Shown here in pieces: positions 38,887 through 51,478 of a stretch of 64,000 nucleotides of DNA. Origin of the DNA: an uncultured bacterium (lineage in GTDB: Bacteria; Krumholzibacteriota; Krumholzibacteriia; Krumholzibacteriales; Krumholzibacteriaceae). The translations under genes were made by a program, and so were the position numbers. The first letter of the stretch is position 1, and each line of letters begins with the position of its first letter. Below the pieces are notes generated by a model. It worked only from the letters and a program-made list of their open reading frames with translations. It did not search any database and was not told where the DNA came from. Location of the stretch: assembly GCA_963813815.1 (NCBI GenBank), contig CAWFAD010000005.1, forward strand, positions 32,001 through 96,000, given 5' to 3'.

Positions 38887-39852
38887 TCAGAGTTTGCCCG
38901 CCTGCTGTCTCTTTCGCAGAGCCGATAGCATGTCCGCCGCCATGCGCGGCAGATCGAAATCGGGGCTCCAGTTCCATTCTTCCCGCGCCGATCGGTCGTC
39001 CATCCAGTTCGGCCACGAATCAGCGATCGCCTGGCGCATCTTATCCACCTGATAATCGATGGCGAAGCCGGGGACGTGCTTGCGGATCTCCGCGGCCAGC
39101 ACCTCGGGGGTGAAATGCATCGCCGTCACGTTGAACGAATTTCTGTGGCGCAGCTTCGCCGGGTCGGCCTCCATGACCATGATCGCCGCCTTGATGGCGT
39201 CGGGCATGTACATCATGTCGAGCGACGTGTCCGATCTCAAAACGCACGTGTAACGGCCCTTCCGTATGGCCTCGTAGAATATCTCGACGGCGTAATCGGT
39301 CGTACCCCCGCCCGGAGGCGTCACGTTCGAGATGATGCCGGGAAAGCGGACGCCGCGCGTGTCGACCCCGTGGCGAGTGAAATAGTAGTCGCAGAGAAGC
39401 TCCCCCGCCACCTTCGTCACGCCGTACATACTCGTCGGCCGCTGGATCGTTTCCTGCGGAGTGTTGTCGAGCGGGGTCGTGGGGCCGAACGCGCCGATCG
39501 AGCTCGGGAAAAAGACGCTGCACCGGCTCTTGCGCGCCGACTCGAGCACGTGAAACAACCCGTCCATGTTGATGCGCCACGCCTTGTGCGGCTCCCCCTC
39601 CGCTATCGCCGACAGCACCGCCGCGAGATGGTACACGATGTCGATGCGGTGCCTCGAGAGCGCCGCCTCGATCTCCTCGGGCTTCATGACGTCGAGCCGC
39701 TCGAAAGCGACGTTCGCCCCGAAGACCCTGTTTTCCTGCACGTCCGTCGCGACGACGTTGTCGTAGCCGTAGCGTTCGCAGAGCGCCGTGGTGAGCTCGG
39801 AACCGATCTGTCCGAGGGCGCCGGTGACGAGAACTCTCCTGGTGGTCTTCAT
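38887..39852 (-). CDS. tdh: L-threonine 3-dehydrogenase (SDR/epimerase type)
   Basis: [41 protein letters not shown]; upstream of kbl. Confidence 0.85.
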
Positions 39853-39991
39853 ACGCTCCCTGCTTCGCGCCGAAGGTTGTGCCCGGAACATGACTCTCCA
39901 CGGCGTCCCTCCTCCGCGAGGAGGGCCCGAACGCGGTGGCCGTACGGTAGCACCGCCCCGGCGCGGCGGTCAAACGAGATTTTCCCGGAGG

Positions 39992-42094
39992 CTAGCGCTT
40001 TCCTTTCCTCTCGATGGCGCGGAGCGCCTCGGCCGTTTCGGCGAGCATCGCCTCCGCCCCCACGCGCGAGCCCACGGCGTTCATCATCCAGAGATCGGGA
40101 AGGAGATTGCCATACGTCGCCATCCGCTCGAACTCCGGTCCGATCCGCCCCGCCCCCTCGATCTTTCTCTCGATCTGCACGGACATGAGGTGTCCCATCG
40201 GATAGTCCGGCAGATAGAGGGAGGATTCGATCATGTGCGAGTAGACGGCGAGCAGCATGACGTCCTTCTTCTTGAAGACCGGGGCGTAGTAGCGGTTCCA
40301 GACGTCCTTCGCGATGCCGATAACGGCCTCGCGAAGCTCGGCGGGCGTCGCCTGCGGGTGATCGTACATCCAGTGCCACACCGCCATGTCCACGAGGGAG
40401 ACGCCGGCGATCTCGTACGCCCCCCAGAAATCGTTCAGCATCCGCATCGCCGCGGTCGTCTCGTCGGAGTCGACCGGCAGGTCGAGCAGCTCGAGGTCAC
40501 GCGCCTGAAAGACGAAGGCGAAGGCCTCGGTGAACGCCGTGTTCGGCACTCCCTGCAGCATCGTGTGATCGACGTCGTTCAGCGAGAGGACCTGCTCGAC
40601 GTTGTGGCCGAGCTCGTGAACGGCGATGTTGAACCCCTTGTAGTCCATCCCGTCCGGGCGCACCCTCGTCCGAAGGCGCGCCACGGCGCCCTTCATCTCG
40701 GCGCCCGAGGCGTGCCCCGAGCCTCGGGCCGGATCGACCGCGATGTGGCGGGCGAGGTACTCGGCCCGATCCCGCTCGAATCCGAGCTTCACGAGGATGT
40801 TCGGGATGTCGCGCTCGAAGGCTTCGGGATTCGGATACTTCGCCGCGACGATCTTGTCGAGCTCCGCCTCGTTCCGGGGGCTCGCCGGCCGAAAGCCGCT
40901 GTACCAGATGTCGTACGGCTCGAGCGCGCGTCCGAGCTTGCGCTCGATGAGGCGGGCGACCTTCGGCACGAGCGGCGACGCGCATACCTGCTCGAACATC
41001 TCCCGGACGCGCTCCTCGGGAATCTCGCGCTCCTCGTCGAACTTGCGCGCGATGTGCGTCGGCGCCGTCGGCGAGTAGGGATCGATGAGACGCGCCGCCG
41101 CGAAGGTCGACAGCAGCGTGGCGTAGCGCGTGTCCGGCTCGCGGTCGTTCGAGGGAGACGCCGCCGGCTCGACGTCGGCGTCCTTCACCGCCGCCGGCGC
41201 GACTTCGTTCGTGTACGGGTTCCAGTCGACGGCGGGGTTATTGATCACGATCTCCGGGATCGTCTGCGTGATGATGCGTTCCATGACCTTCACGATCATG
41301 CGTTGCTTCGCGGGACCGTCCGCCGCGTCGCGGTAGCTCGTCTTGAGCTCGTCGCGGACATTCCAATGCATCAGGAGGCACATCCCGGGCGGAAAAAGGC
41401 GCTTCCCCGAATCATCGAGCAGATGGTGCATCCAGATGTTGTAGCTCGCGATGTACGCCTCCGCGTCGGCGGTGATCTTGGCGACCTCGAGGCTCACGCG
41501 CGACGGCACGCGCGCCGAGAAACGCTCGGCGAGGCGGGCCTCCGCCCATTCCCTCCTGCTCCAGCTGTTCCCCCGCTCGAGCCGCTCCTCGAGCGTCGTA
41601 AGCGGAAAATTGAGCAGCGCAACGAAAGCGATCTTGTTCGCGAAAAAATCGTCGTTGACGTGCGCCTCCGGTTCGTATCCGGCGAACGTCTCGTCGATGG
41701 GAAGTATCGGGCCGAGATCGAGCTCGGCCTGCCACTTGAGCGCCGTCCTGATCTCGTGCATGTGGCCATCGAGCTTGTCGAGGACGCGCTCGAAGCGATT
41801 AAAAACCACGTCGCGCGTCGCCTCGTCCCCCGCGAAGCTCTCGCGCACGAACGCCTCGAACGAGGCCTCGTCCCCATCCTCCGCGCGCCAGAACGAGGCG
41901 ACCTGCTCCATGCCGCGGCGCGCGCCCTCGCGCGCAACCTCGCCGTATTTGGCGACGAGCTCGGGTTCGAGCTTCGCGATCGACCCGTTCATCCACAACG
42001 GCCGCTCCGCCTGCCCCCGCGCCGGCGTAATGCCGGACGAGCAGAAGGCGACCAGTGCGACGGCCAGACAGGCGAAAAGCTTCATCTCGTTCAT
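39992..42094 (-). CDS. Secreted gluzincin-like (M3/M32-like) metallopeptidase homolog
   Basis: Signal peptide; AVHELGH followed about 25 aa later by FTEAFA. Confidence 0.65.
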   Translation of the reverse strand: MNEMKLFACLAVALVAFCSSGITPARGQAERPLWMNGSIAKLEPELVAKYGEVAREGARRGMEQVASFWRAEDGDEASFEAFVRESFAGDEATRDVVFNRFERVLDKLDGHMHEIRTALKWQAELDLGPILPIDETFAGYEPEAHVNDDFFANKIAFVALLNFPLTTLEERLERGNSWSRREWAEARLAERFSARVPSRVSLEVAKITADAEAYIASYNIWMHHLLDDSGKRLFPPGMCLLMHWNVRDELKTSYRDAADGPAKQRMIVKVMERIITQTIPEIVINNPAVDWNPYTNEVAPAAVKDADVEPAASPSNDREPDTRYATLLSTFAAARLIDPYSPTAPTHIARKFDEEREIPEERVREMFEQVCASPLVPKVARLIERKLGRALEPYDIWYSGFRPASPRNEAELDKIVAAKYPNPEAFERDIPNILVKLGFERDRAEYLARHIAVDPARGSGHASGAEMKGAVARLRTRVRPDGMDYKGFNIAVHELGHNVEQVLSLNDVDHTMLQGVPNTAFTEAFAFVFQARDLELLDLPVDSDETTAAMRMLNDFWGAYEIAGVSLVDMAVWHWMYDHPQATPAELREAVIGIAKDVWNRYYAPVFKKKDVMLLAVYSHMIESSLYLPDYPMGHLMSVQIERKIEGAGRIGPEFERMATYGNLLPDLWMMNAVGSRVGAEAMLAETAEALRAIERKGKR

Positions 42095-42340
42095 CAGCAG
42101 CTCCTTTTTGAACCATTTCTCGAAGGCGGATGGCCACTGGACTATTTCTGTTACAAATAAATACGTTAGCCGGCTGAGTCAATCAGAAAATCATTCTTTG
42201 CTTCCGGGCCGGGCGCCCGGTTTCGCTTTTGGGGCCTCTTGAACTGAACGATAATTATTGTAATTTGGAACCATTTAGAATATAATAATCTTTACTAAAT
42301 ACAAGCTTACTTTGAGAATCCCCTTTAAAGGAGAGGAACT

Positions 42341-42901
42341 ATGAAAACATTGCGGACATCGGCGCTCATTGCCTCCATATGCGCTCTTTTGGCGCTCCCG
42401 GCTGTCGTGCACGCGATCGGTAACGGAACCGCCCGGCTTGCCAATGTGACGCCGCTCTCCGGAGGCTGCGTCATGGGCCCGACGGGCCAGTACGTTCAGG
42501 CGTGGGACGTGGAACCGGGCCAGGCCTACGCCGTCACGCTCTCCAACGTGACGGAATGCGCGAACGGCGGCACCGCTCCGACGCTCAACGTCAGGGTGAA
42601 CGGCACGACGGGCAACATGGATTTCGTCGCCGTCTACGTTTCGCCGGGCGTGTACACGTTCGACTGCACGTTGCCGGGAAACGCCGCCTGCACGTATCCG
42701 ATTCTCTACTGCACGGTGCCTGGCAAGGCCAGCACCGGGCTCTTCGCCATCAGGAACGACGGCGGGAGCTTCCAGGCGCACTTGCGCCCCTCTTCGTTCG
42801 ACGAGGGATGCGCCAGCCCGATGCCGATCCTCGGCCCCGATTGCACAATGGTCGGAACCGAAGAATCGACGTGGAGCGCGATAAAGGAGATCTTCCGCTA
42901 G
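42341..42901 (+). CDS. Secreted Cys-containing hypothetical protein with C-terminal TW-x-x-IK tail
   Basis: Strong RBS (GGAGAGGA), signal peptide ending VHA, ends EESTWSAIKEIFR. Confidence 0.8.
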   Translation: MKTLRTSALIASICALLALPAVVHAIGNGTARLANVTPLSGGCVMGPTGQYVQAWDVEPGQAYAVTLSNVTECANGGTAPTLNVRVNGTTGNMDFVAVYVSPGVYTFDCTLPGNAACTYPILYCTVPGKASTGLFAIRNDGGSFQAHLRPSSFDEGCASPMPILGPDCTMVGTEESTWSAIKEIFR

Positions 42902-43538: not shown

Positions 43539-43615
43539 TGGCGTCCCCAACGGGATTTGAACCCGTGTTGCCGCCGTGAAAGGGCGGTGTCCTATCCGGG
43601 CTAGACGATGGGGAC
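43539..43615 (-). tRNA. tRNA-Glu (TTC)
   Basis: GTCCCCATCGTCTAG..CCGCC-CTTTCAC-GGCGG..GGTTCAAATCC..TGGGGACGCCA cloverleaf with encoded CCA. Confidence 0.97.
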
Positions 43616-43632
43616 GCTCATAGAGACACAGC

Positions 43633-43661
43633 AATTTATCGAACAAAACCCCGCTCGTCAA
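43633..43661 (-). promoter_or_regulatory. Putative sigma70 promoter of tRNA-Glu
   Basis: Minus strand TTGACG-17nt-TAAATT, overlapping the lexA stop. Confidence 0.5.
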
Positions 43662-44314
43662 CGGGAAAAGGCGCTCCGGCGCCCTGGAAAGCGCCGAATG
43701 ACCCCGACGACGGCGCCGATGACGGCCGCGCGGTCGCCCCTCTCCCCCGAGAGCTCGATCGGCTCGTAGGCGGGATTCGCGGGCTCGAGAACGACGCGGG
43801 TCCCCTTCCGCGCGAAGCGTTTGACGGTCGTTTCGCCGTCGACGATCGCGACGACGAGGCTCCCCGGCTCGCATGAGGAGGTCTTCCGCACGACCACGAG
43901 ATCGCCGGGAACGATGTGCTCGCCGGTCATGCTCTCCCCCTTCACCTCGAGGATGAAATCCCCCCGACCCGCGAAGAGCCGCTCGTCGAGAAGCAGGGAG
44001 CCCTCTCCTTCCTCGCAGGGAGCCTCGGGCTTCCCCGCCGCCACGCGTCCCGCGAGAGGATAGGCCCTCACGGAGGCTCCCCCGCTCCCGGCCGGCGCGT
44101 CCTCGCACACGATCTCGATTGCGCGTGAGATCCCGCGCGTCCTCCTGATGCACCCCTTCCGCTCGAGGGCCCGAAGGTGATCGACCACTCCCCGATTCGA
44201 GCGCAGACCGAAAGCCGTTCGAATCTCCCGTATCGTCGGCGGATAGCCGTGGCGCCGCGCGTATTCCCGCAGGAACGAAAGCACGCGCTGTTGCCGCGCC
44301 GTGAGCCCGGTCAT
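43658..44314 (-). CDS. lexA: SOS repressor LexA
   Basis: LTARQ..GYPPTIREI..HLRALERKG HTH; VAAG cleavage site; GESM (Ser); TVKR (Lys). Confidence 0.93.
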   Translation of the reverse strand: MTGLTARQQRVLSFLREYARRHGYPPTIREIRTAFGLRSNRGVVDHLRALERKGCIRRTRGISRAIEIVCEDAPAGSGGASVRAYPLAGRVAAGKPEAPCEEGEGSLLLDERLFAGRGDFILEVKGESMTGEHIVPGDLVVVRKTSSCEPGSLVVAIVDGETTVKRFARKGTRVVLEPANPAYEPIELSGERGDRAAVIGAVVGVIRRFPGRRSAFSR

Positions 44315-47139
44315 CGCTTTCCCGTCTCCTTTCCCGGCCGCCCGCCGGTCGATCCCCCCGGATCGTCCGTCCCGGCGTCGAAGAGCGATATCTGACGCTC
44401 CGATGCGCGGCGCCTTTCCCTGCGCGCGCTCGTCCGGGCCGCCGGCGGCGCCACGCCCGGCTCGACGGCGCCATGGTAGAACTCGCCGCACAGAGTCCTC
44501 AGCCGATCCCGCCCGAAACCGCTGTCGTCGAAGATGCCGTTCTCGACGAGCTCGAGCGCCGAGCGCTCGGACACGCGCCCTTTCATCCGCTCGAGAAAGT
44601 CGCCGAGCGAAGCGAAATCGCCCTTCCAAATCCGCTCCTCTACGATCGCCTCCCACTCTCCCTTGTCGAGCGCGACGACGGTCTGGAGCGGAGCGCGGAT
44701 GACGCCGTCCTCGTAGGAGAACGACATCGCGTCGGCGTTGATCCCGAAAGGCACGACCGCCGTGCCCTTCGATCGAACGTACTTGAGGTATCGCTGCATC
44801 CGCTCCTTCACGTCCACGTTGCTGTTGAGGAGCGCGGTGAAATACCTCTCGAAGGCATGGGCCTTGAGGTACGCCGTCCGGTAGCTCACCGAGGCCTGCG
44901 CGCAGCTGAGGGCCTTGCTGTGCGTGAAGGGGATCGCATAAAGCAGAAAGTCGAAGATGCGCTCGGCGTCCTCCTCGTTCGTGCCCGCGTCCATCGCGCT
45001 CCGTATGTAGGCGAGCCGGGCCGCCTGGAGCTCGCCGGAGTCGCGATCCCGCAGCGCCCGCTCGACGGCGACGGCCTCCGCGCCGCGCAGCCCCGCCGTC
45101 TCTTCGAGAATCTCGCGCACCTGCTCCCGGTAGAGAAGGACGCCGCGCGTAAGCGCGAGGATCCCCGCCAGCGACGGATGCGGAAGATTCACCTTGCCCT
45201 TTTTCTCCGCGTTATCGCGGTACTTTTCCCACAGCCTGCCCTCCATGGGCCCCGGCCGGTAGAGCGAAATGACGTTGACGAGCTCGTTGAAAGAGGACGG
45301 CTTGATATCCCTCAGGTGATCCTGAATGCCCCGGCTCTCGAGCAGGTAGACCCCTTCCGTTTCGCCCGTCGAAAGGAGGGCGTACACGTGAGGATCGTCG
45401 AGGGAGGGCGGCATCCAACGCCCCACTTCCCCGGCGCCGGCCACGGCGAGCTCCTCTCCCGGCTGCGAGCGGGAGAGCTCGATCGTCTCGACGATCGCCG
45501 AGAGAAAATGCGAATGTTGAATGCCGAGAAGCCAGCCGCCACACGATTCGATCGCGGCCGCGCCGAGCTCGATGAACCGGTCGCCCGCCGGACCAGCGAC
45601 GAATGACGCGAACCCCTCCATCTCGCGGGGCAGGATCACGATCCGGGAGCTGTCGAGGGTGGAATGAAAGAGCCTCCCCTGCAGCGCGAAAGCCGCATGC
45701 AGCACCTCTCTCGCGAGCGGCTCGGCGGTATAGAGCCGCTGGGCGTCGGGAGAGGCCGCGAGAAGCGAGGCGAGGCTTCGGTGCCTGCGATCGAACGCGC
45801 GGACCGAGGCGAGCTCGTTGCGGAGGTCGACGGGGACCTTGAGAACCTCCGCGGTCTCCTTCACGATCGTCGCGAGCGACATCTCCTCCCGCTTGGCCTG
45901 GTACGTCGGCGCGTAACCCGGCAGGAGCGAGGCGACGAGCCCGACGAGCTCCTCCTTTTTCGCTTCCGAAGTGATCAGCTCCACGGGGGGCGGCACGCCG
46001 CGTCCCGAGAGGGAAAACGACTCGAAAAAAAGATCGTGATCGGCCGGATTGAGCGGTATGACCTCGATGCAGTGCGCGACGAGGCTCTCGAGGAGCGGAC
46101 TCCCCATGAGCTCGATCCGGATGCCCCGCTCCGCGGCGAGGGAGGAAAGCCCGCGCAGAAAGATCAGAAATCCCGCGATCCCCTCATCCCCCGCGCTCCG
46201 GAGCTCGCGCTCCATGAGCCGGGCGAGATGGGCCCGCTCGTCGTGAGGCCGATTGTGAAACGCGAGCTTGAAGCGGCGGCGGCACCGGTCGGCGAGCGCC
46301 TCGGACGCATTGGGAACGCTCGAAAAGGCGATCCGCCCACCGCGAGGCAGATCGACGGCGCAGCGGGCGGCGATCTCCCCCGATCGCTCGAAGACCTCCG
46401 CGCCGCCCATGAAGAGCGGGGCGAGCTCGCGTTCCCGTTTCAGGTGGTACTCTTCCGTTTGCGGCTCCTTCCCCTCCTCCTTTTCCCCCTTCGTGCCGAT
46501 GCGCCTCGCGATGCGGTAATGCTCCGCGTCCTCCTTGAGCGCGTACCGGTCGTTGTTCGTCACGACGGCGTCGACGTGCGCCTTGCCGGCGATGACGACG
46601 AGCTGCTCGGCAACGAGCGGCTCCTGGCCCGCGTTATGGTTCATGAGCTCGACGAAAACGTTCTCCCGTCCGCAGATCTCCGAGAGCCTCACGATGACGT
46701 CGCGCGCGCGGCCGAGCGTCCCGTGCAGCACCGCCTGCGCCGCCTCTCCGCGAATGCACCCGCTCAGCACGATGAGACCCTCGCGATGCGCCGCGAGATC
46801 GTCCGCCGTGACGAACCCCCCCCGATCGCGCGTGGCGTGGAGCGACACGAGCGAACACAGATTGCGGTAGCCGATGTTGCTCTCCGCGAGCACGGTCAGG
46901 TGGTAGAGCCCGAGCGCCCCCGTCAGGGACGCGTGCCGGAGCTCCGCGCCGAACACCGGCTTGATCCCGGCCCGCCTCGCGAGCTCGTCGAACTCATAAT
47001 GTCCGTGGGTGGAGCAGTGGTCGGTGACGGCGATGGCGCCGAATCCGAGGTAAGATGCGCGCGAGACCATATCGGAGAGCGTGAGCAGACTCTCCGAATC
47101 GCTGTACACGCTGTGAACATGGAGCGGAACGTACGCCAC
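44311..47139 (-). CDS. DnaE (Pol III alpha)-like protein, PHP plus degenerate polymerase domain; predicted polymerase-inactive
   Basis: HVHSVYS, AVTDH, GAE, SGC, TEGVYLLES, SLYRPGP, FTHSKA..YRTAYLKAH; catalytic PDxDxDF replaced by PPVELIT; GTG start with GGAGG RBS. Confidence 0.85.
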   Translation of the reverse strand: MAYVPLHVHSVYSDSESLLTLSDMVSRASYLGFGAIAVTDHCSTHGHYEFDELARRAGIKPVFGAELRHASLTGALGLYHLTVLAESNIGYRNLCSLVSLHATRDRGGFVTADDLAAHREGLIVLSGCIRGEAAQAVLHGTLGRARDVIVRLSEICGRENVFVELMNHNAGQEPLVAEQLVVIAGKAHVDAVVTNNDRYALKEDAEHYRIARRIGTKGEKEEGKEPQTEEYHLKRERELAPLFMGGAEVFERSGEIAARCAVDLPRGGRIAFSSVPNASEALADRCRRRFKLAFHNRPHDERAHLARLMERELRSAGDEGIAGFLIFLRGLSSLAAERGIRIELMGSPLLESLVAHCIEVIPLNPADHDLFFESFSLSGRGVPPPVELITSEAKKEELVGLVASLLPGYAPTYQAKREEMSLATIVKETAEVLKVPVDLRNELASVRAFDRRHRSLASLLAASPDAQRLYTAEPLAREVLHAAFALQGRLFHSTLDSSRIVILPREMEGFASFVAGPAGDRFIELGAAAIESCGGWLLGIQHSHFLSAIVETIELSRSQPGEELAVAGAGEVGRWMPPSLDDPHVYALLSTGETEGVYLLESRGIQDHLRDIKPSSFNELVNVISLYRPGPMEGRLWEKYRDNAEKKGKVNLPHPSLAGILALTRGVLLYREQVREILEETAGLRGAEAVAVERALRDRDSGELQAARLAYIRSAMDAGTNEEDAERIFDFLLYAIPFTHSKALSCAQASVSYRTAYLKAHAFERYFTALLNSNVDVKERMQRYLKYVRSKGTAVVPFGINADAMSFSYEDGVIRAPLQTVVALDKGEWEAIVEERIWKGDFASLGDFLERMKGRVSERSALELVENGIFDDSGFGRDRLRTLCGEFYHGAVEPGVAPPAARTSARRERRRASERQISLFDAGTDDPGGSTGGRPGKETGKR

Positions 47140-47168
47140 CGTAAAACCTCCCGCTGGAGCGCGCGGCC

Positions 47169-47197
47169 ATACTACTAAACATTTGTACACATTGCAA
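47169..47197 (-). promoter_or_regulatory. Sigma70 promoter of the dnaE-like/lexA operon with a candidate SOS box (47177-47188)
   Basis: Minus strand TTGCAA-17nt-TAGTAT; the spacer contains GTAC-AAAT-GTTT, resembling GAAC-N4-GTTC LexA boxes. Confidence 0.6.
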
Positions 47198-47345
47198 TCG
47201 AATCCCGGCCGCCCGGCGCGCGGTCCGCGCCCTCCGGATGAAACCATTACTCTTTGAATCCGCGGGGGCGATGGGCTACACTCCGGCCCATCGCGCTCCG
47301 TTGAACCGGACAGGGAAACCGCCGAGAGAGGGAGGCTCGCCGCTC

Positions 47346-48140
47346 ATGCGAACGTTGCAATCGAAGCTGTACGAAATGCTCGAGCTCTCCACCGGCTCGC
47401 GGGCCGGACGGCTCGCGAACGCGATGCTCGTCGTGCTCATCATCGCCAACGTCGTCGCCGTGACCCTGCACACGGTGCACCCGTACGCGGCGCGGTACGC
47501 GCGGGAATTTCGCCTCTTCGAGCTCGTTTCCGTGATCGTTTTTTCGATCGAATACATCCTCCGGATGTGGGTCTGCACGCGGGACAAGAAATACGGAAAA
47601 CCCCTCACCGGCCGGATCAAGTACTTCTTCTCCCCCCTCGCGCTCATCGATCTCGCGGCCGTGCTCCCCTTCTACCTGCCGATGCTCATACCCATCGATC
47701 TCATCTTCATGCGCGCGCTCCGCATCATGCGCCTCCTGCGCCTGCTCAAGCTCGGGCGCTACTCGGAATCGATCCGCACGATGGGCGCGGTGATGAACGC
47801 AAAAAGGGAGGAGCTCGGGGTGGCGCTCGCGATGTCTCTCATACTCCTCCTCATCGCCTCGACCCTCATGTACTTCATCGAAGGAGGGGCGCAACCGGAC
47901 GTCTTTTCGAGCATTCCGGCGGCCATGTGGTGGGGTGTCGTCACCATGACGACCGTGGGTTACGGAGACGCTTTTCCCATCACTCCGGCTGGGAAGATTC
48001 TGAGCGGGATCATCGCCGTTCTCGGCATCGGACTCTTCATTCTCCCGGCGAGCATCATCGCCGGGGGATACGGCGAGCAGATTCGCGAGAGGCGCGGCGC
48101 CCAGCGCGCGTGTCCCCACTGCGGAAAGCCGCTCCCCTGA
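47346..48140 (+). CDS. Voltage-gated K+ channel (ion transporter)
   Basis: S4-like RALRIMRLLRLLKLGRY, filter TTVGYGD, C-terminal CPHCG. Confidence 0.92.
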   Translation: MRTLQSKLYEMLELSTGSRAGRLANAMLVVLIIANVVAVTLHTVHPYAARYAREFRLFELVSVIVFSIEYILRMWVCTRDKKYGKPLTGRIKYFFSPLALIDLAAVLPFYLPMLIPIDLIFMRALRIMRLLRLLKLGRYSESIRTMGAVMNAKREELGVALAMSLILLLIASTLMYFIEGGAQPDVFSSIPAAMWWGVVTMTTVGYGDAFPITPAGKILSGIIAVLGIGLFILPASIIAGGYGEQIRERRGAQRACPHCGKPLP

Positions 48141-48722: not shown

Positions 48723-48751
48723 TTGAAATTCCTTGACCGATGCGCTACCAT
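48723..48751 (+). promoter_or_regulatory. Putative sigma70 promoter for the rsbU-like operon
   Basis: TTGAAA-17nt-TACCAT. Confidence 0.5.
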
Positions 48752-48824
48752 GCATGCCATGGCGCCGCGGGCCACCGCCGCGCTGCGGCTCATTTCGAAA
48801 CATCGCATACAGGGGGGTTCGGTC

Positions 48825-50126
48825 ATGGCCGATCCCGGTCGGGGCAACGAGCTCGAGCGAATAGCGAAGGAGAACGAACGCCTTCACAGCGCGATCGAGG
48901 AGCTCTCGATCCTGAACGACATCGCCGTCGCAACAGGCTCCACATCCTCCCTCGATCGCATCATCGAGCTCATCGTCCGCAAGTGCATCAAGCACCTCAG
49001 GGTCGAGCAGGCCCTCATCACCCTCCTCGACACGAAGCAGAACGGCCAGCAGTTCCGCACGATGATCCGGAGCGCCGATAGCTCGCACGAGATCCGCCCG
49101 TACCGCCTCGACGCCGAGATCGCCGGCTGGATGCTCAAGAACCGTACGACGCTCATCGTGAACGACCTCGCGAGCGACGAGCGGTTCCAGATGAGGAACG
49201 CCGACGACTACCACGCGCGCTCCGTGCTGAGCGCCCCGCTGCTCCTCAAGGGCCGCATCATCGGGCTTCTCAACCTCTTCAACAAGCGCACGGGGGATTT
49301 CTCGGAGACCGACGCGCGACTCCTCGGAATCATCGCCGCCCAATCGGCGCAGATCATCGAAAACGCCCGCCTCGCCGCCGAGGAGCAGGCCCTGCAGCTC
49401 ATGCAGGAGGAGATGCGGCTCGCGTGCAAGATTCAAACGGATCTTCTCCCCAAGGAACCGCCCCTCGTCCCCGGATACGACATCGCGGGCACGAGCATTC
49501 CGGCGAAGATGGTCGGCGGCGATTACTTCGACTTCATCAAAATCGACGATCGCTCGATCGCCCTCTGTCTCGGGGACGTCTCGGGCAAGGGCATGCCCGC
49601 GGCGCTCCTCATGGCGAATCTCCAAGCGACGCTGCGCGCCCAAACCGCCGTCTGCACCGGTCCGAAGGAATGTCTCGAGCGCTCGAACGCCCTTCTCTAC
49701 CGTAGCACCGACGCGGACAAGTTCGCTACGCTCTTTTACGGGATCCTCGACACGGAGGCCCACCGCCTCACGTACGCGAACGCCGGGCACAACTACCCGA
49801 TGCTGCTCAAGGTCGGGTGCGATCCGGAGCTCCTCGAAACGAGCGGCCTCGTTCTCGGCTGCCTCGAGGACTTCCGGTACAGCGAGGGGGCGATCGATCT
49901 CGCGAAGGGCGATCTCCTCCTCATCTATTCCGACGGCATCACCGAGTCGTTCAACGTGAACGAGGAGGAGTACGGCGAGGAGAAGCTCTCGGGACTGCTC
50001 CGCGAGCAATGCGGCAAACGGGCTTCCGAGATCATCGAAACGATCGTCGCCTCGGTGCGCGCGCACGCCGCCGCCGCCCCTCAGTCCGACGACATAACGC
50101 TGCTCGTCATCAGGCGGGAGTGCTGA
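48825..50126 (+). CDS. GAF + PP2C (SpoIIE/RsbU-like) phosphatase
   Basis: GAF region (APL..GLLNLFNK..FSETD); VGGDYFD, GDVSGKG, NAGH, YSDGITE, DDITL. Confidence 0.92.
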   Translation: MADPGRGNELERIAKENERLHSAIEELSILNDIAVATGSTSSLDRIIELIVRKCIKHLRVEQALITLLDTKQNGQQFRTMIRSADSSHEIRPYRLDAEIAGWMLKNRTTLIVNDLASDERFQMRNADDYHARSVLSAPLLLKGRIIGLLNLFNKRTGDFSETDARLLGIIAAQSAQIIENARLAAEEQALQLMQEEMRLACKIQTDLLPKEPPLVPGYDIAGTSIPAKMVGGDYFDFIKIDDRSIALCLGDVSGKGMPAALLMANLQATLRAQTAVCTGPKECLERSNALLYRSTDADKFATLFYGILDTEAHRLTYANAGHNYPMLLKVGCDPELLETSGLVLGCLEDFRYSEGAIDLAKGDLLLIYSDGITESFNVNEEEYGEEKLSGLLREQCGKRASEIIETIVASVRAHAAAAPQSDDITLLVIRREC

Positions 50127-50940: not shown

Positions 50941-50980
50941 CATGCGAACGGGGCAGCGTATGTGGAAGGCGGCCTCACCC

Positions 50981-51478
50981 ATGGATCGGGAAACCTTCGA
51001 GGAGGCGGTCCACCGGTACAGCAAGGCCATCTTCAACGCGGCATACCGGATCGTGAACGATTACGAGGATGCAATGGATATCACGCAGACGACATTCGTA
51101 AAAGCGTACGAGCGGCTGAACCGCTACGACCCCTCGCACCATATCTTCAGCTGGCTCTATAAAATCGCCGTTCACGAATCGATCAATTTCGCGCAGCGCA
51201 AACGCCGCATGGTGCCGCTCGAGAATGATCTCGACCCCGCTCCCGATGCGTCCGACGAGGCCTGCATCCAGAACGAAACGAGCGAGCGGATCCAGCGCGC
51301 GCTCATGACCATCCCCCTCGATTACCGGACGATCATCGTGCTGCGCCATTTTCACGATCTCTCCTACGCGGAGATCGCGGCCATTCTCGACGTTCCGGAA
51401 AAAACGGTCAAATCGAGGCTTTTCACCGGGCGGCGGCTCCTCAGGGATTCGCTTCTCAAAGCGGGGTATGCGCCATGA
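50981..51478 (+). CDS. ECF RNA polymerase sigma factor
   Basis: DAMDITQ..FVKA, SWLYKIA, LSYAEIAAIL..TVKSRLF. Confidence 0.93.
   Translation: MDRETFEEAVHRYSKAIFNAAYRIVNDYEDAMDITQTTFVKAYERLNRYDPSHHIFSWLYKIAVHESINFAQRKRRMVPLENDLDPAPDASDEACIQNETSERIQRALMTIPLDYRTIIVLRHFHDLSYAEIAAILDVPEKTVKSRLFTGRRLLRDSLLKAGYAP

Follow-up and report, generated by a model that had tools for sequence, protein, structure and literature searches.

What can a protein with the architecture of a replicative DNA polymerase do once the residues of its polymerase site are gone, and what does the joining of its gene to lexA mean? We addressed this question for a DnaE-like gene on the minus strand of a 64,000-nucleotide (nt) stretch from an uncultured bacterium of the family Krumholzibacteriaceae (assembly GCA_963813815.1, contig CAWFAD010000005.1, positions 32,001 to 96,000); this whole stretch is called the window, and coordinates without a contig label refer to it. 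An initial annotation, made by a model from the letters alone, had described the gene as a polymerase-dead DnaE paralog that keeps a beta-clamp motif and is translationally coupled to lexA, and we refer to its product as pseudo-DnaE. We consider it fairly probable that pseudo-DnaE is a non-catalytic counterpart of the DNA polymerase III (Pol III) alpha subunit that occupies the clamp or primer termini under LexA control, as a brake or gatekeeper. In the following, G000 denotes the window's genome, type x the order-level form of the gene, and g and f numbers the genus and family labels of the analysis.

Reading Frame and Junction with lexA

The gene lies directly upstream of lexA, in the following arrangement:

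44311..47139, minus strand: pseudo-DnaE coding sequence, 942 amino acids (aa), GTG start, TGA stop
47147..47152, minus strand: ribosome-binding site (RBS) GGGAGG, 7 nt ahead of the GTG start
43658..44314, minus strand: lexA, 218 aa, with its ATG within the ATGA overlap

The minus-strand frame 44311..47247 is open from its first ATG and would encode 978 aa, and the GTG start at 47139 yields the 942-aa product, which matches record P0004 with 100% identity. We preferred the 942-aa form because the promoter-like element described below falls within the longer ATG frame. Together with the RBS, the Pfam domains, and the fold model, these data bore out the uninterrupted 942-aa open reading frame (ORF) of DnaE architecture that had been described at the outset. 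The overlap of its stop with the lexA start was also recovered: at the junction ATGA (44311-44314), the TGA of pseudo-DnaE (44313..44311) shares bases with the ATG of lexA (44314..44312), with AAGGAG upstream. The downstream protein scores 199.6 bits with the LexA model TIGR00498 (cut-off 110.95), and its GRVAAG, GESM, and VKRF align with A84-G85, S119, and K156 of Escherichia coli LexA, the cleavage site and the Ser/Lys dyad being kept. On these signals, pseudo-DnaE heads a predicted operon of two genes, the second of which encodes a LexA paralog with its cleavage residues retained.

Loss of the Polymerase Residues in the Palm

Pfam recognized four domains in pseudo-DnaE, namely PHP, DNA_pol3_alpha (39 bits only), the finger domain, and HHH_6. 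The parts that bear on polymerase chemistry are as follows:

45595..46290, minus strand: degenerate palm (PF07733 at 39 bits; alignments)
46084..46113, minus strand: ELMGSPLLES, in place of GPGRGSxAGS (alignment to DnaE1)
45970..45990, minus strand: PPVELIT, in place of PDxDxDF (alignment to DnaE1)
45499..45540, minus strand: GGWLLGIQHSHFLS, a family-specific conserved motif in place of GLxKxDxLGL (K553 to L, D555 to G)
44992..45405, minus strand: fingers domain, more conserved than any other part (SLYRPGP, LLYREQV)

Relative to E. coli alpha, the catalytic triad was changed from D401 to P, D403 to E, and D555 to G, both in phmmer alignments with solved chains and in a profile of 41 sequences, which confirmed the earlier reading that two of the three Asp are lost and the third is Glu. 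All three are required in E. coli alpha. Further equivalents were replaced as well (R362 to G, G363 to S, S364 to P, R390 to S, D405 to I, K553 to L, and R709 to E), and R710 was kept; R362, G363, S364, R390, K553, and R709 are positions that we take to be contacts of the incoming deoxynucleoside triphosphate. Alignment with the canonical DnaE1 of related genomes gave the same picture, and the altered motifs first read by eye (the GRGS loop, PDxDxDF, and GLxKxDFLGL) were all located at the coordinates above. The same substitutions occurred in all aligned orthologs, at most positions in 41 of 41 family members, in agreement with what the initial annotation had led us to look for. Compared with the canonical DnaE1 of genome G012, the palm scored 39 against 337 bits (12%), and erosion was milder elsewhere (PHP 114 against 182, fingers 113 against 227, and helix-hairpin-helix (HhH) 44 against 88). 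Among the NCBIfam models, those of DnaE1 were nearest, although every curated cut-off was missed (TIGR00594, 423.1 against 434.35; PRK05673, 413 against 1002); the error-prone DnaE2 model PRK05672 gave 233 bits and did not reach its cut-off of 939. These alignments indicate that pseudo-DnaE is predicted to be unable to polymerize by the known chemistry.

A polymerase that still works with unconventional residues in its site, for example the retained Glu (E387 of P0004) and the novel QHSH motif, would agree with the acidic residue (Glu or Asp) retained at the D403 position across all aligned orthologs and with the conservation of the remodelled cleft. The Pro and Gly at the D401 and D555 positions, the disappearance of the GS loop and of the R390, K553, and R709 equivalents, and a palm score at 12% of the canonical value nevertheless make such an enzyme very improbable.

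Retained Fold and Candidate Clamp Motif

The AlphaFold2 model of pseudo-DnaE had a mean local confidence (pLDDT) of 83.7 and a predicted template-modeling score (pTM) of 0.79, with the palm strands present. In Foldseek comparisons, it aligned over about 930 columns with the alpha subunits of Thermus, E. coli, and Mycobacterium tuberculosis (template-modeling scores 0.71-0.77; E values 1e-49 to 1e-44), and in the model the whole alpha fold is kept, with PHP, palm, thumb, fingers, and HhH. The C-terminal features are listed below:

44503..44763, minus strand: (HhH)2 / beta-binding domain (Pfam)
44380..44394, minus strand: QISLF, a clamp-binding-type motif at residues 916-920 in the disordered C-terminal tail

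The protein ends 22 residues past QISLF, with no OB or tau-binding domain; Pfam gave no OB match (PF01336) in pseudo-DnaE and one in the DnaE1 of G012. Residues 892-942 are modeled as a disordered tail (pLDDT below 50), and within it Q916, S918, and F920 are nearly invariant in the family alignment. QISLF aligns with the GQxSLF and GQxFLGF of the DnaE1 proteins of the lineage, that is, with the position of their internal beta-binding motif. The early description of a truncation before the OB and tau region together with a QISLF clamp-type motif thus stands on Pfam, alignment, and coordinates. QISLF is a near-consensus clamp motif, and clamp binding is predicted from the motif itself. The cognate clamp, DnaN, is encoded at G000:C16:67267-68361.

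An Altered PHP Site

The PHP domain, the seat of proofreading activity where it is active, was examined at its nine ligand positions:

46636..47124, minus strand: PHP domain with a non-canonical ligand set (Pfam and family alignment)
46543..46560, minus strand: TNNDRY, PHP ligand motif, found at this place as initially annotated

The ligands read H, H, E, H, E, H, C, N, R, where the canonical set is HHDHEH[C/H]DH. Partial retention had been proposed from the sequence, and this part of the claim held, since some ligands are kept; the site as a whole is non-canonical, with N and R at positions 8 and 9. Among the 41 order-level members, positions 5, 6, and 7 (E66, H80, and C128) were invariant, position 8 was Asn in 41 and position 9 Arg in 40, and Glu at position 3 and His at position 4 occurred in 22 and 31, respectively. 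The HxH pair H7 and H9 was conserved in at least 90% of these members, and H47 and H69 were invariant too.

One alternative is that the function lies in the PHP domain, pseudo-DnaE being a 3'-5' exonuclease or phosphoesterase tethered to the clamp, with a polymerase part that only holds DNA. The invariant E66, H80, and C128, the conservation of H7, H9, H47, and H69, and a ratio of nonsynonymous to synonymous divergence (dN/dS) of 0.12-0.31 in this domain would fit, as would the parallel of PolX1, in which, according to passages of PMC12926913, a subset combines a dead polymerase site with an active PHP exonuclease. The PHP of PolX1, however, has the better-conserved site, and that of pseudo-DnaE departs from the canonical motif. 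The same survey counts any departure from HHDHEH[C/H]DH as inactive, and pseudo-DnaE falls on the inactive side of this nine-residue motif, with Asn and Arg where Asp and His belong at positions 8 and 9 and with variation at positions 3 and 4. Moreover, most ligands are gone in the more divergent types y, z, and w described below, which argues against a PHP activity as the common function of the clade. We therefore regard this alternative as unlikely, if the least so of those considered.

Conservation and Purifying Selection

The close relatives of the protein belong to Candidatus Krumholzibacteriota. With the protein as query, orthologs were found in all 27 other genomes of the order at 36-73% identity, and a wider draw detected one in 47 of 50 order genomes, the three without being 61-81% complete. 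The family was separated from other DnaE proteins by a gap in bit score (at least 739 for the family against 333 for canonical DnaE1), and among 1.84 billion representatives a matching drop from 637 to 566 was seen. Within the best 150 of 43,621 representative matches, motif loss was confined to 12 family members and one y-type protein.

Pairwise dN/dS (NG86) ranged from 0.11 to 0.24 in eight pairs with dS below 0.8, which excluded the neutral decay that the initial annotation had raised as a check. By domain, the values were 0.12-0.31 for PHP, 0.10-0.24 for palm-thumb, 0.08-0.16 for the fingers, 0.05-0.24 for HhH (0.05-0.14 in five of seven pairs), and 0.36-0.64 for the tail; in genus g7, three pairs with dS below 0.9 gave 0.17. 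In the one genome pair compared with DnaE1 (G008 and G002; G007 was left out), dN was 0.099 (omega 0.11) for DnaE1 and 0.262 (omega 0.19) for pseudo-DnaE, which thus changed about 2.6 times faster. The share of the top residue was 0.82 over GGWxxGxQHSHFLSA, 0.72 in the ELMGSxLLES region, and 0.63 over the whole protein. These results demonstrated that purifying selection acts on pseudo-DnaE and that the gene is not decaying.

The very divergent palm, the split frames in G006 and G010, and the origin of all genomes from metagenome bins could be read as signs of a decaying pseudogene or an assembly artefact. This explanation has almost nothing left to it, given that frames of 900-945 aa are intact in most of the 27 genomes at dN/dS 0.11-0.24, that the family-specific motifs are conserved, and that conserved synteny surrounds the gene on a contig of 113,931 bases. 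As to the split cases, the ortholog is divided into two frames or across two contigs at locus L037 (G006:C321) and in G010 (C85 and C11), through a frameshift, a pseudogene, or an assembly break.

A Group of DnaE-Like Genes across the Class

Type x occupies a site between tRNA-Lys(ttt), where present, and tRNA-Glu(ttc), and in further families of the class the same site was found to hold more divergent DnaE-like genes:

Type y: family f5 (G029, G126, G189, G038, and G117)
Type z: family f6 (G030)
Type w: family f9 (G048 and G098)

The D401 equivalent is absent in all four types, and D555 is lost in x and y but kept in z and w; the GS loop is retained only in type y. The His-to-Arg change at PHP position 9 is common to all four, and each carries a clamp-type motif after HhH, namely Q[ILF]S[LF]F in type x (here QISLF) and QLVFPF/QLELGF, QLVLF, and QLELPF in the other types. 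In the trees, the four types formed one group beside the sampled DnaE1 sequences, not within them, and apart from four DnaE2 sequences. The approximate likelihood ratio support (SH-aLRT) for this group was 98 under LG+G4 and 85 under LG+C20, in quick searches; type z sits on a long branch, and the better model leaves the clade unstarred. Shared synteny argues more strongly for a common origin of the four types. Three genomes from families f4, f7, and f8 were checked, and only DnaE1 and DnaE2-like genes were seen in them. A phage origin was also considered, as the nearest entries in a language-model look-up were viral DnaE clusters, and it was rejected: in tblastn against phage records, identity did not exceed 27.7%, which is no nearer than cellular DnaE1.

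Linkage with lexA

Conserved lexA synteny, an expectation of the initial annotation, turned out to depend on the type. In type x (28 loci), lexA lies directly downstream in 6 (G000, G001, G004, G002, G006, and G018), tRNA-Glu follows directly in 17, and the contig ends too early in 5, so that lexA is present at 6 of 23 informative loci. In type y, lexA was found at all 5 informative loci. For types w and z, the species collection held 19 loci, the contigs of G048 and G098 included, with lexA at 12, a direct tRNA-Glu at 4, and 3 uninformative (12 of 16). The synteny is therefore general in the deeper relatives but patchy in type x and not universal among close orthologs; the pairing of the gene with lexA looks ancestral, with repeated loss of lexA.

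The linked LexA is a different paralog from the LexA of DnaE2 cassettes. G000 holds three lexA genes; on contigs C1 and C6, the other two each stand at the head of a lexA / Y-family / dnaE2 cassette. Likewise, in G018, G048, and G030 one lexA lies by the dead DnaE and a second about 3 kb or less from a DnaE2-type match, and a second lexA is present in G126 and G029.

These observations bear on the idea that pseudo-DnaE is a sensor or co-regulator working with LexA, for example by binding stalled primer termini or clamps and modulating LexA cleavage or DNA binding. The stop/start overlap suggests co-production, the pairing dates far back and is common in the class, and the linked LexA, with 42-43% identity to the cassette LexA, is a separate paralog. 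The gene was retained, however, where lexA was lost (17 of the 23 informative type x loci), and neighborhood alone is weak evidence for binding, so we give this idea a small share of the probability.

Other Polymerases in the Genome

The statement that imuA and imuB are absent held within the window and failed for the genome, since two lexA / Y-family / dnaE2 cassettes were found on other contigs. These paralogous cassettes (C1:134-5228 and C6:96641-101718 of G000) lie at contig ends and share 81-84% DNA identity. Their dnaE2 copies keep PDFDIDF and GRGS, and their Y-family protein has Asn at the first Asp position (HVNTDDFY) and a clamp motif of its own, QIDLF. Y-family matches in G000 occurred only on contigs C1, C2, and C6, with none on C5, the contig of the window. 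Separately, the C6 cassette copy was read in several frames, through either frameshifts or an assembly error.

A canonical dnaE elsewhere in the genome, which the initial annotation had proposed to confirm, did not come to light: neither dnaE1 nor PolC was found among the 16 contigs of G000, which is 90.8% complete. Of 15 genomes from the genus of G000, at least 12 showed a DnaE1 or a large piece of one, the DnaE1 of relatives scoring about 1270-1360 bits; because the genus relatives have DnaE1, its absence from G000 is probably an assembly gap.

With DnaE2 cassettes in the genome, pseudo-DnaE could be an accessory of the DnaE2 mutasome, serving as an adaptor of DnaE2 or its Y-family partner to the clamp. 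Besides the presence of the two cassettes, the pairing of both pseudo-DnaE and the cassettes with a LexA paralog and the precedent of ImuB, a dead polymerase described as an adaptor in passages of the literature cited below, would speak for such a role. Against it, none of the five genomes of genus g7 has a DnaE2-type match and the gene is selected in all of them, the cassette Y-family protein has its own QIDLF, and pseudo-DnaE was never beside a cassette in the loci seen. We consider the accessory role unlikely. The retention under selection in g7, where a DnaE2 match is missing from all five genomes and full LexA from the one checked (G021, see below), further means that pseudo-DnaE must have a role at least partly independent of SOS and of the mutasome.

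Candidate Promoter and Operator

Upstream of the GTG start, a promoter-like element with a palindromic spacer was read:

47169..47197, minus strand: promoter-like element TTGCAA - 17 nt - TAGTAT, read from the sequence
47191..47175, minus strand: its spacer TGTGTACAAATGTTTAG, a LexA-box-like AC-N4-GT pseudo-palindrome, read from the sequence

Corresponding elements at loci that carry lexA are arranged as follows:

G000: -35 TTGCAA, spacer TGTGTACAAATGTTTAG, -10 TAGTAT
G018: -35 TTGATA, spacer ACTAAACATATGTTTAG, -10 TATCAT
G029: -35 TTGACT, spacer ACTAAACATTTGCATCC, -10 TACTAT
G126: -35 TTGACT, spacer ACTAAACATGCGCAGCG, -10 TACTAT
G048: -35 TTGCCA, spacer TATATACATATGTATGT, -10 TATCTT
L095: -35 TTGCGG, spacer TGCATACGTTTGTATGC, -10 TATTGA

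The same register, with a -35 element, a 17-nt spacer containing the palindrome, and a -10 element, was seen in G018, G029, G126, G117, G085, G048, and L095, and the palindrome of G018 is perfect. In shape, it resembles the LexA boxes of Bacillus subtilis (CGAACN4GTTCG) and of cyanobacteria (RGTACNNNDGTWCB), as these are given in a passage of PMC3091678.

The promoters of the cassette lexA genes (G000:C1 near 5257 on the minus strand, C6 near 96554 on the plus strand, and locus L051 of G012) carry a direct repeat, TTGAC-TTTCGGTTTTCTTTCGG-TAAACT. The difference between this repeat and the palindrome of the dead DnaE suggests that two LexA paralogs read different operators.

A wider LexA regulon was also sought, and the idea was dropped: the scan gave an rRNA match and a double site at C6:65574 near a CoA-transferase gene, and nothing beyond the operon. 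At this double site (G000:C6:65550-65595), the adjacent palindromes GTAAAT-GGAA-GTTTAC and GTAAAC-TAAT-GTTTAC stand beside the CoA-transferase gene and Pfam-less ORFs, and they are conserved in three species, with orthologous sites at G001:C25:229 and G004:C100:67022.

A Proposed Role at the Clamp and Primer Terminus

We proposed the following sequence of events. The spacer palindrome would be the operator of the LexA encoded in the operon, so that the pair would be autoregulated and induced by DNA damage. The tail of pseudo-DnaE would then bind the beta clamp, and its fingers and HhH surfaces would bind DNA; binding both, the protein may occupy clamps or primer termini without extending them and so limit the access of polymerases during damage, as a brake or gatekeeper. 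In this respect it would resemble ImuB as a dead, clamp-bound scaffold, with the scaffold here derived from the replicase itself.

Several observations weigh against this proposal. Those on regulation concern the box, first of all: scored against CTAAAC-N4-GTTTAG, it reached 9-12 of 12 positions in five type x loci with lexA, and among the 15 loci lacking lexA it reached 6-9 in 14 and 11 in G003, but this score is not independent, because the consensus was derived from the same loci. A good box is still present in G003 and G015, both of which have no lexA, and the promoter of the window matches the consensus at 8 of 12 positions, below the scan threshold of 9, and was unlisted by the scan. No such box stands before recA of G000, and a genome-wide scan of G000 gave no excess, with fewer matches than a control pattern. 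It follows from the last two results that the regulon may be the operon alone, and the term SOS is assumed here from the nature of LexA. Linkage is a second point, as 17 of the 23 informative close orthologs have no adjacent lexA. In five such genus members, whose genomes are 62-84% complete, no linked-type LexA was found elsewhere, and only the cassette type, 42-43% identical to the linked LexA, was present; G021, at 97% complete and the sole g7 genome checked, has no full LexA. A constitutive brake would be costly, which favors a scaffold or protective role over plain competition. Finally, the palm and PHP pockets, remodelled and strongly conserved, hint at a partner or ligand outside the model.

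On balance, we retained the proposal of a non-catalytic alpha-like protein at the clamp or primer end. In a more far-reaching form, which we put forward only tentatively, pseudo-DnaE would represent a fifth, non-catalytic lineage of the C family, already paired in one operon with a dedicated LexA paralog in the ancestor of the whole class. Upon damage, it would be loaded by its C-terminal motif onto beta clamps at primer ends and hold them without synthesis, and it would determine which polymerase gains access, as a checkpoint or hand-off factor derived from the replicase.

Neighboring Features of the Locus

Downstream of lexA, the border of the module is marked by the following elements:

43649..43666, minus strand: terminator-like hairpin at the lexA end, tentative, as the hairpin-scan count does not exceed that of shuffled controls
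43539..43615, minus strand: tRNA-Glu(ttc), the conserved downstream border of the module
43661..43633, minus strand: promoter-like site TTGACG-17-TAAATT, directly before tRNA-Glu and overlapping the lexA end and the hairpin

Upstream of pseudo-DnaE, an ion-channel gene starts at 47346 on the opposite strand, and upstream of that gene lie a GAF-SpoIIE (PP2C-type) phosphatase gene (48723-50126) and an ECF-type sigma factor gene (50942-51478). On the other side of the module, an AT-rich intergenic stretch (42200-42340) with TACTAAATACAAGCTTACTT precedes a 186-aa plus-strand ORF (42341..42901) that has no Pfam match. Over 39788-42160, the two strands carry long ORFs that overlap (790 and 700 aa) and have no Pfam match; either strand may be the coding one. 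Reading frames that were tabulated downstream amounted to translations of the tRNA-Glu gene and to unrelated genes.

Relation to Known Systems and Implications

DnaE1 is the closest known relative, with the same full-length fold, the best NCBIfam and PDB sequence matches, a clamp motif at the equivalent position, and the neighboring place in the tree; it differs in having intact catalytic Asp and GS loop as well as OB and tau-binding domains, and it coexists with pseudo-DnaE in the relatives. DnaE2 (ImuC) is likewise a second DnaE-type protein tied to lexA, with a non-canonical PHP and no tau-binding domain; however, it is catalytically active, the G000 copies keep PDFDIDF and GRGS, and it is separate in the tree. 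The gene order also differs, with lexA, Y-family, and dnaE2 in the cassette as against pseudo-DnaE and then lexA between two tRNA genes.

Outside the C family, passages of PMC12926913, PMC3919608, and PMC3765255 describe ImuB as having a polymerase fold without catalytic carboxylates, a clamp motif, and LexA control. ImuB serves as a working analogy only: it has a Y-family fold and an ImuB-C domain, whereas pseudo-DnaE has C-family domains alone, and ImuB acts with DnaE2, whereas pseudo-DnaE occurs without a DnaE2 match in g7. Archaeal PolB3-like proteins and the C-terminal half of Pol epsilon are inactivated, conserved paralogs of the B family for which structural roles have been proposed (PMC2527604 and PMC2669801); they belong to another family and another domain of life and have no LexA or clamp-motif context.

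The C family comprises PolC, DnaE1, DnaE2, and DnaE3, and inactivated PHP domains have been described in it, as stated in passages of PMC3919608 and PMC12926913; according to a passage of the latter, a survey from 2026 that covers 3070 complete genomes, conservation is in general lower at exonuclease sites than at the polymerase site. No polymerase-dead C-family group is described in the corresponding passages of these two papers, supplements aside, where a minor group could be listed. Literature searches on inactive, non-catalytic, or pseudo-enzyme DnaE brought up nothing closer.

All carriers of the gene are uncultured, and tests of its role must therefore be heterologous. The C family, to our knowledge, holds every bacterial replicase. 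The Y family (ImuB), the B family, and the X family are each known to include dead polymerase paralogs, and a case in the C family would be an addition to these. If the proposal is true, pseudo-DnaE would be a new player in the management of sliding-clamp access during damage, and it would offer a natural separation-of-function alpha for the non-catalytic roles of the replicase.

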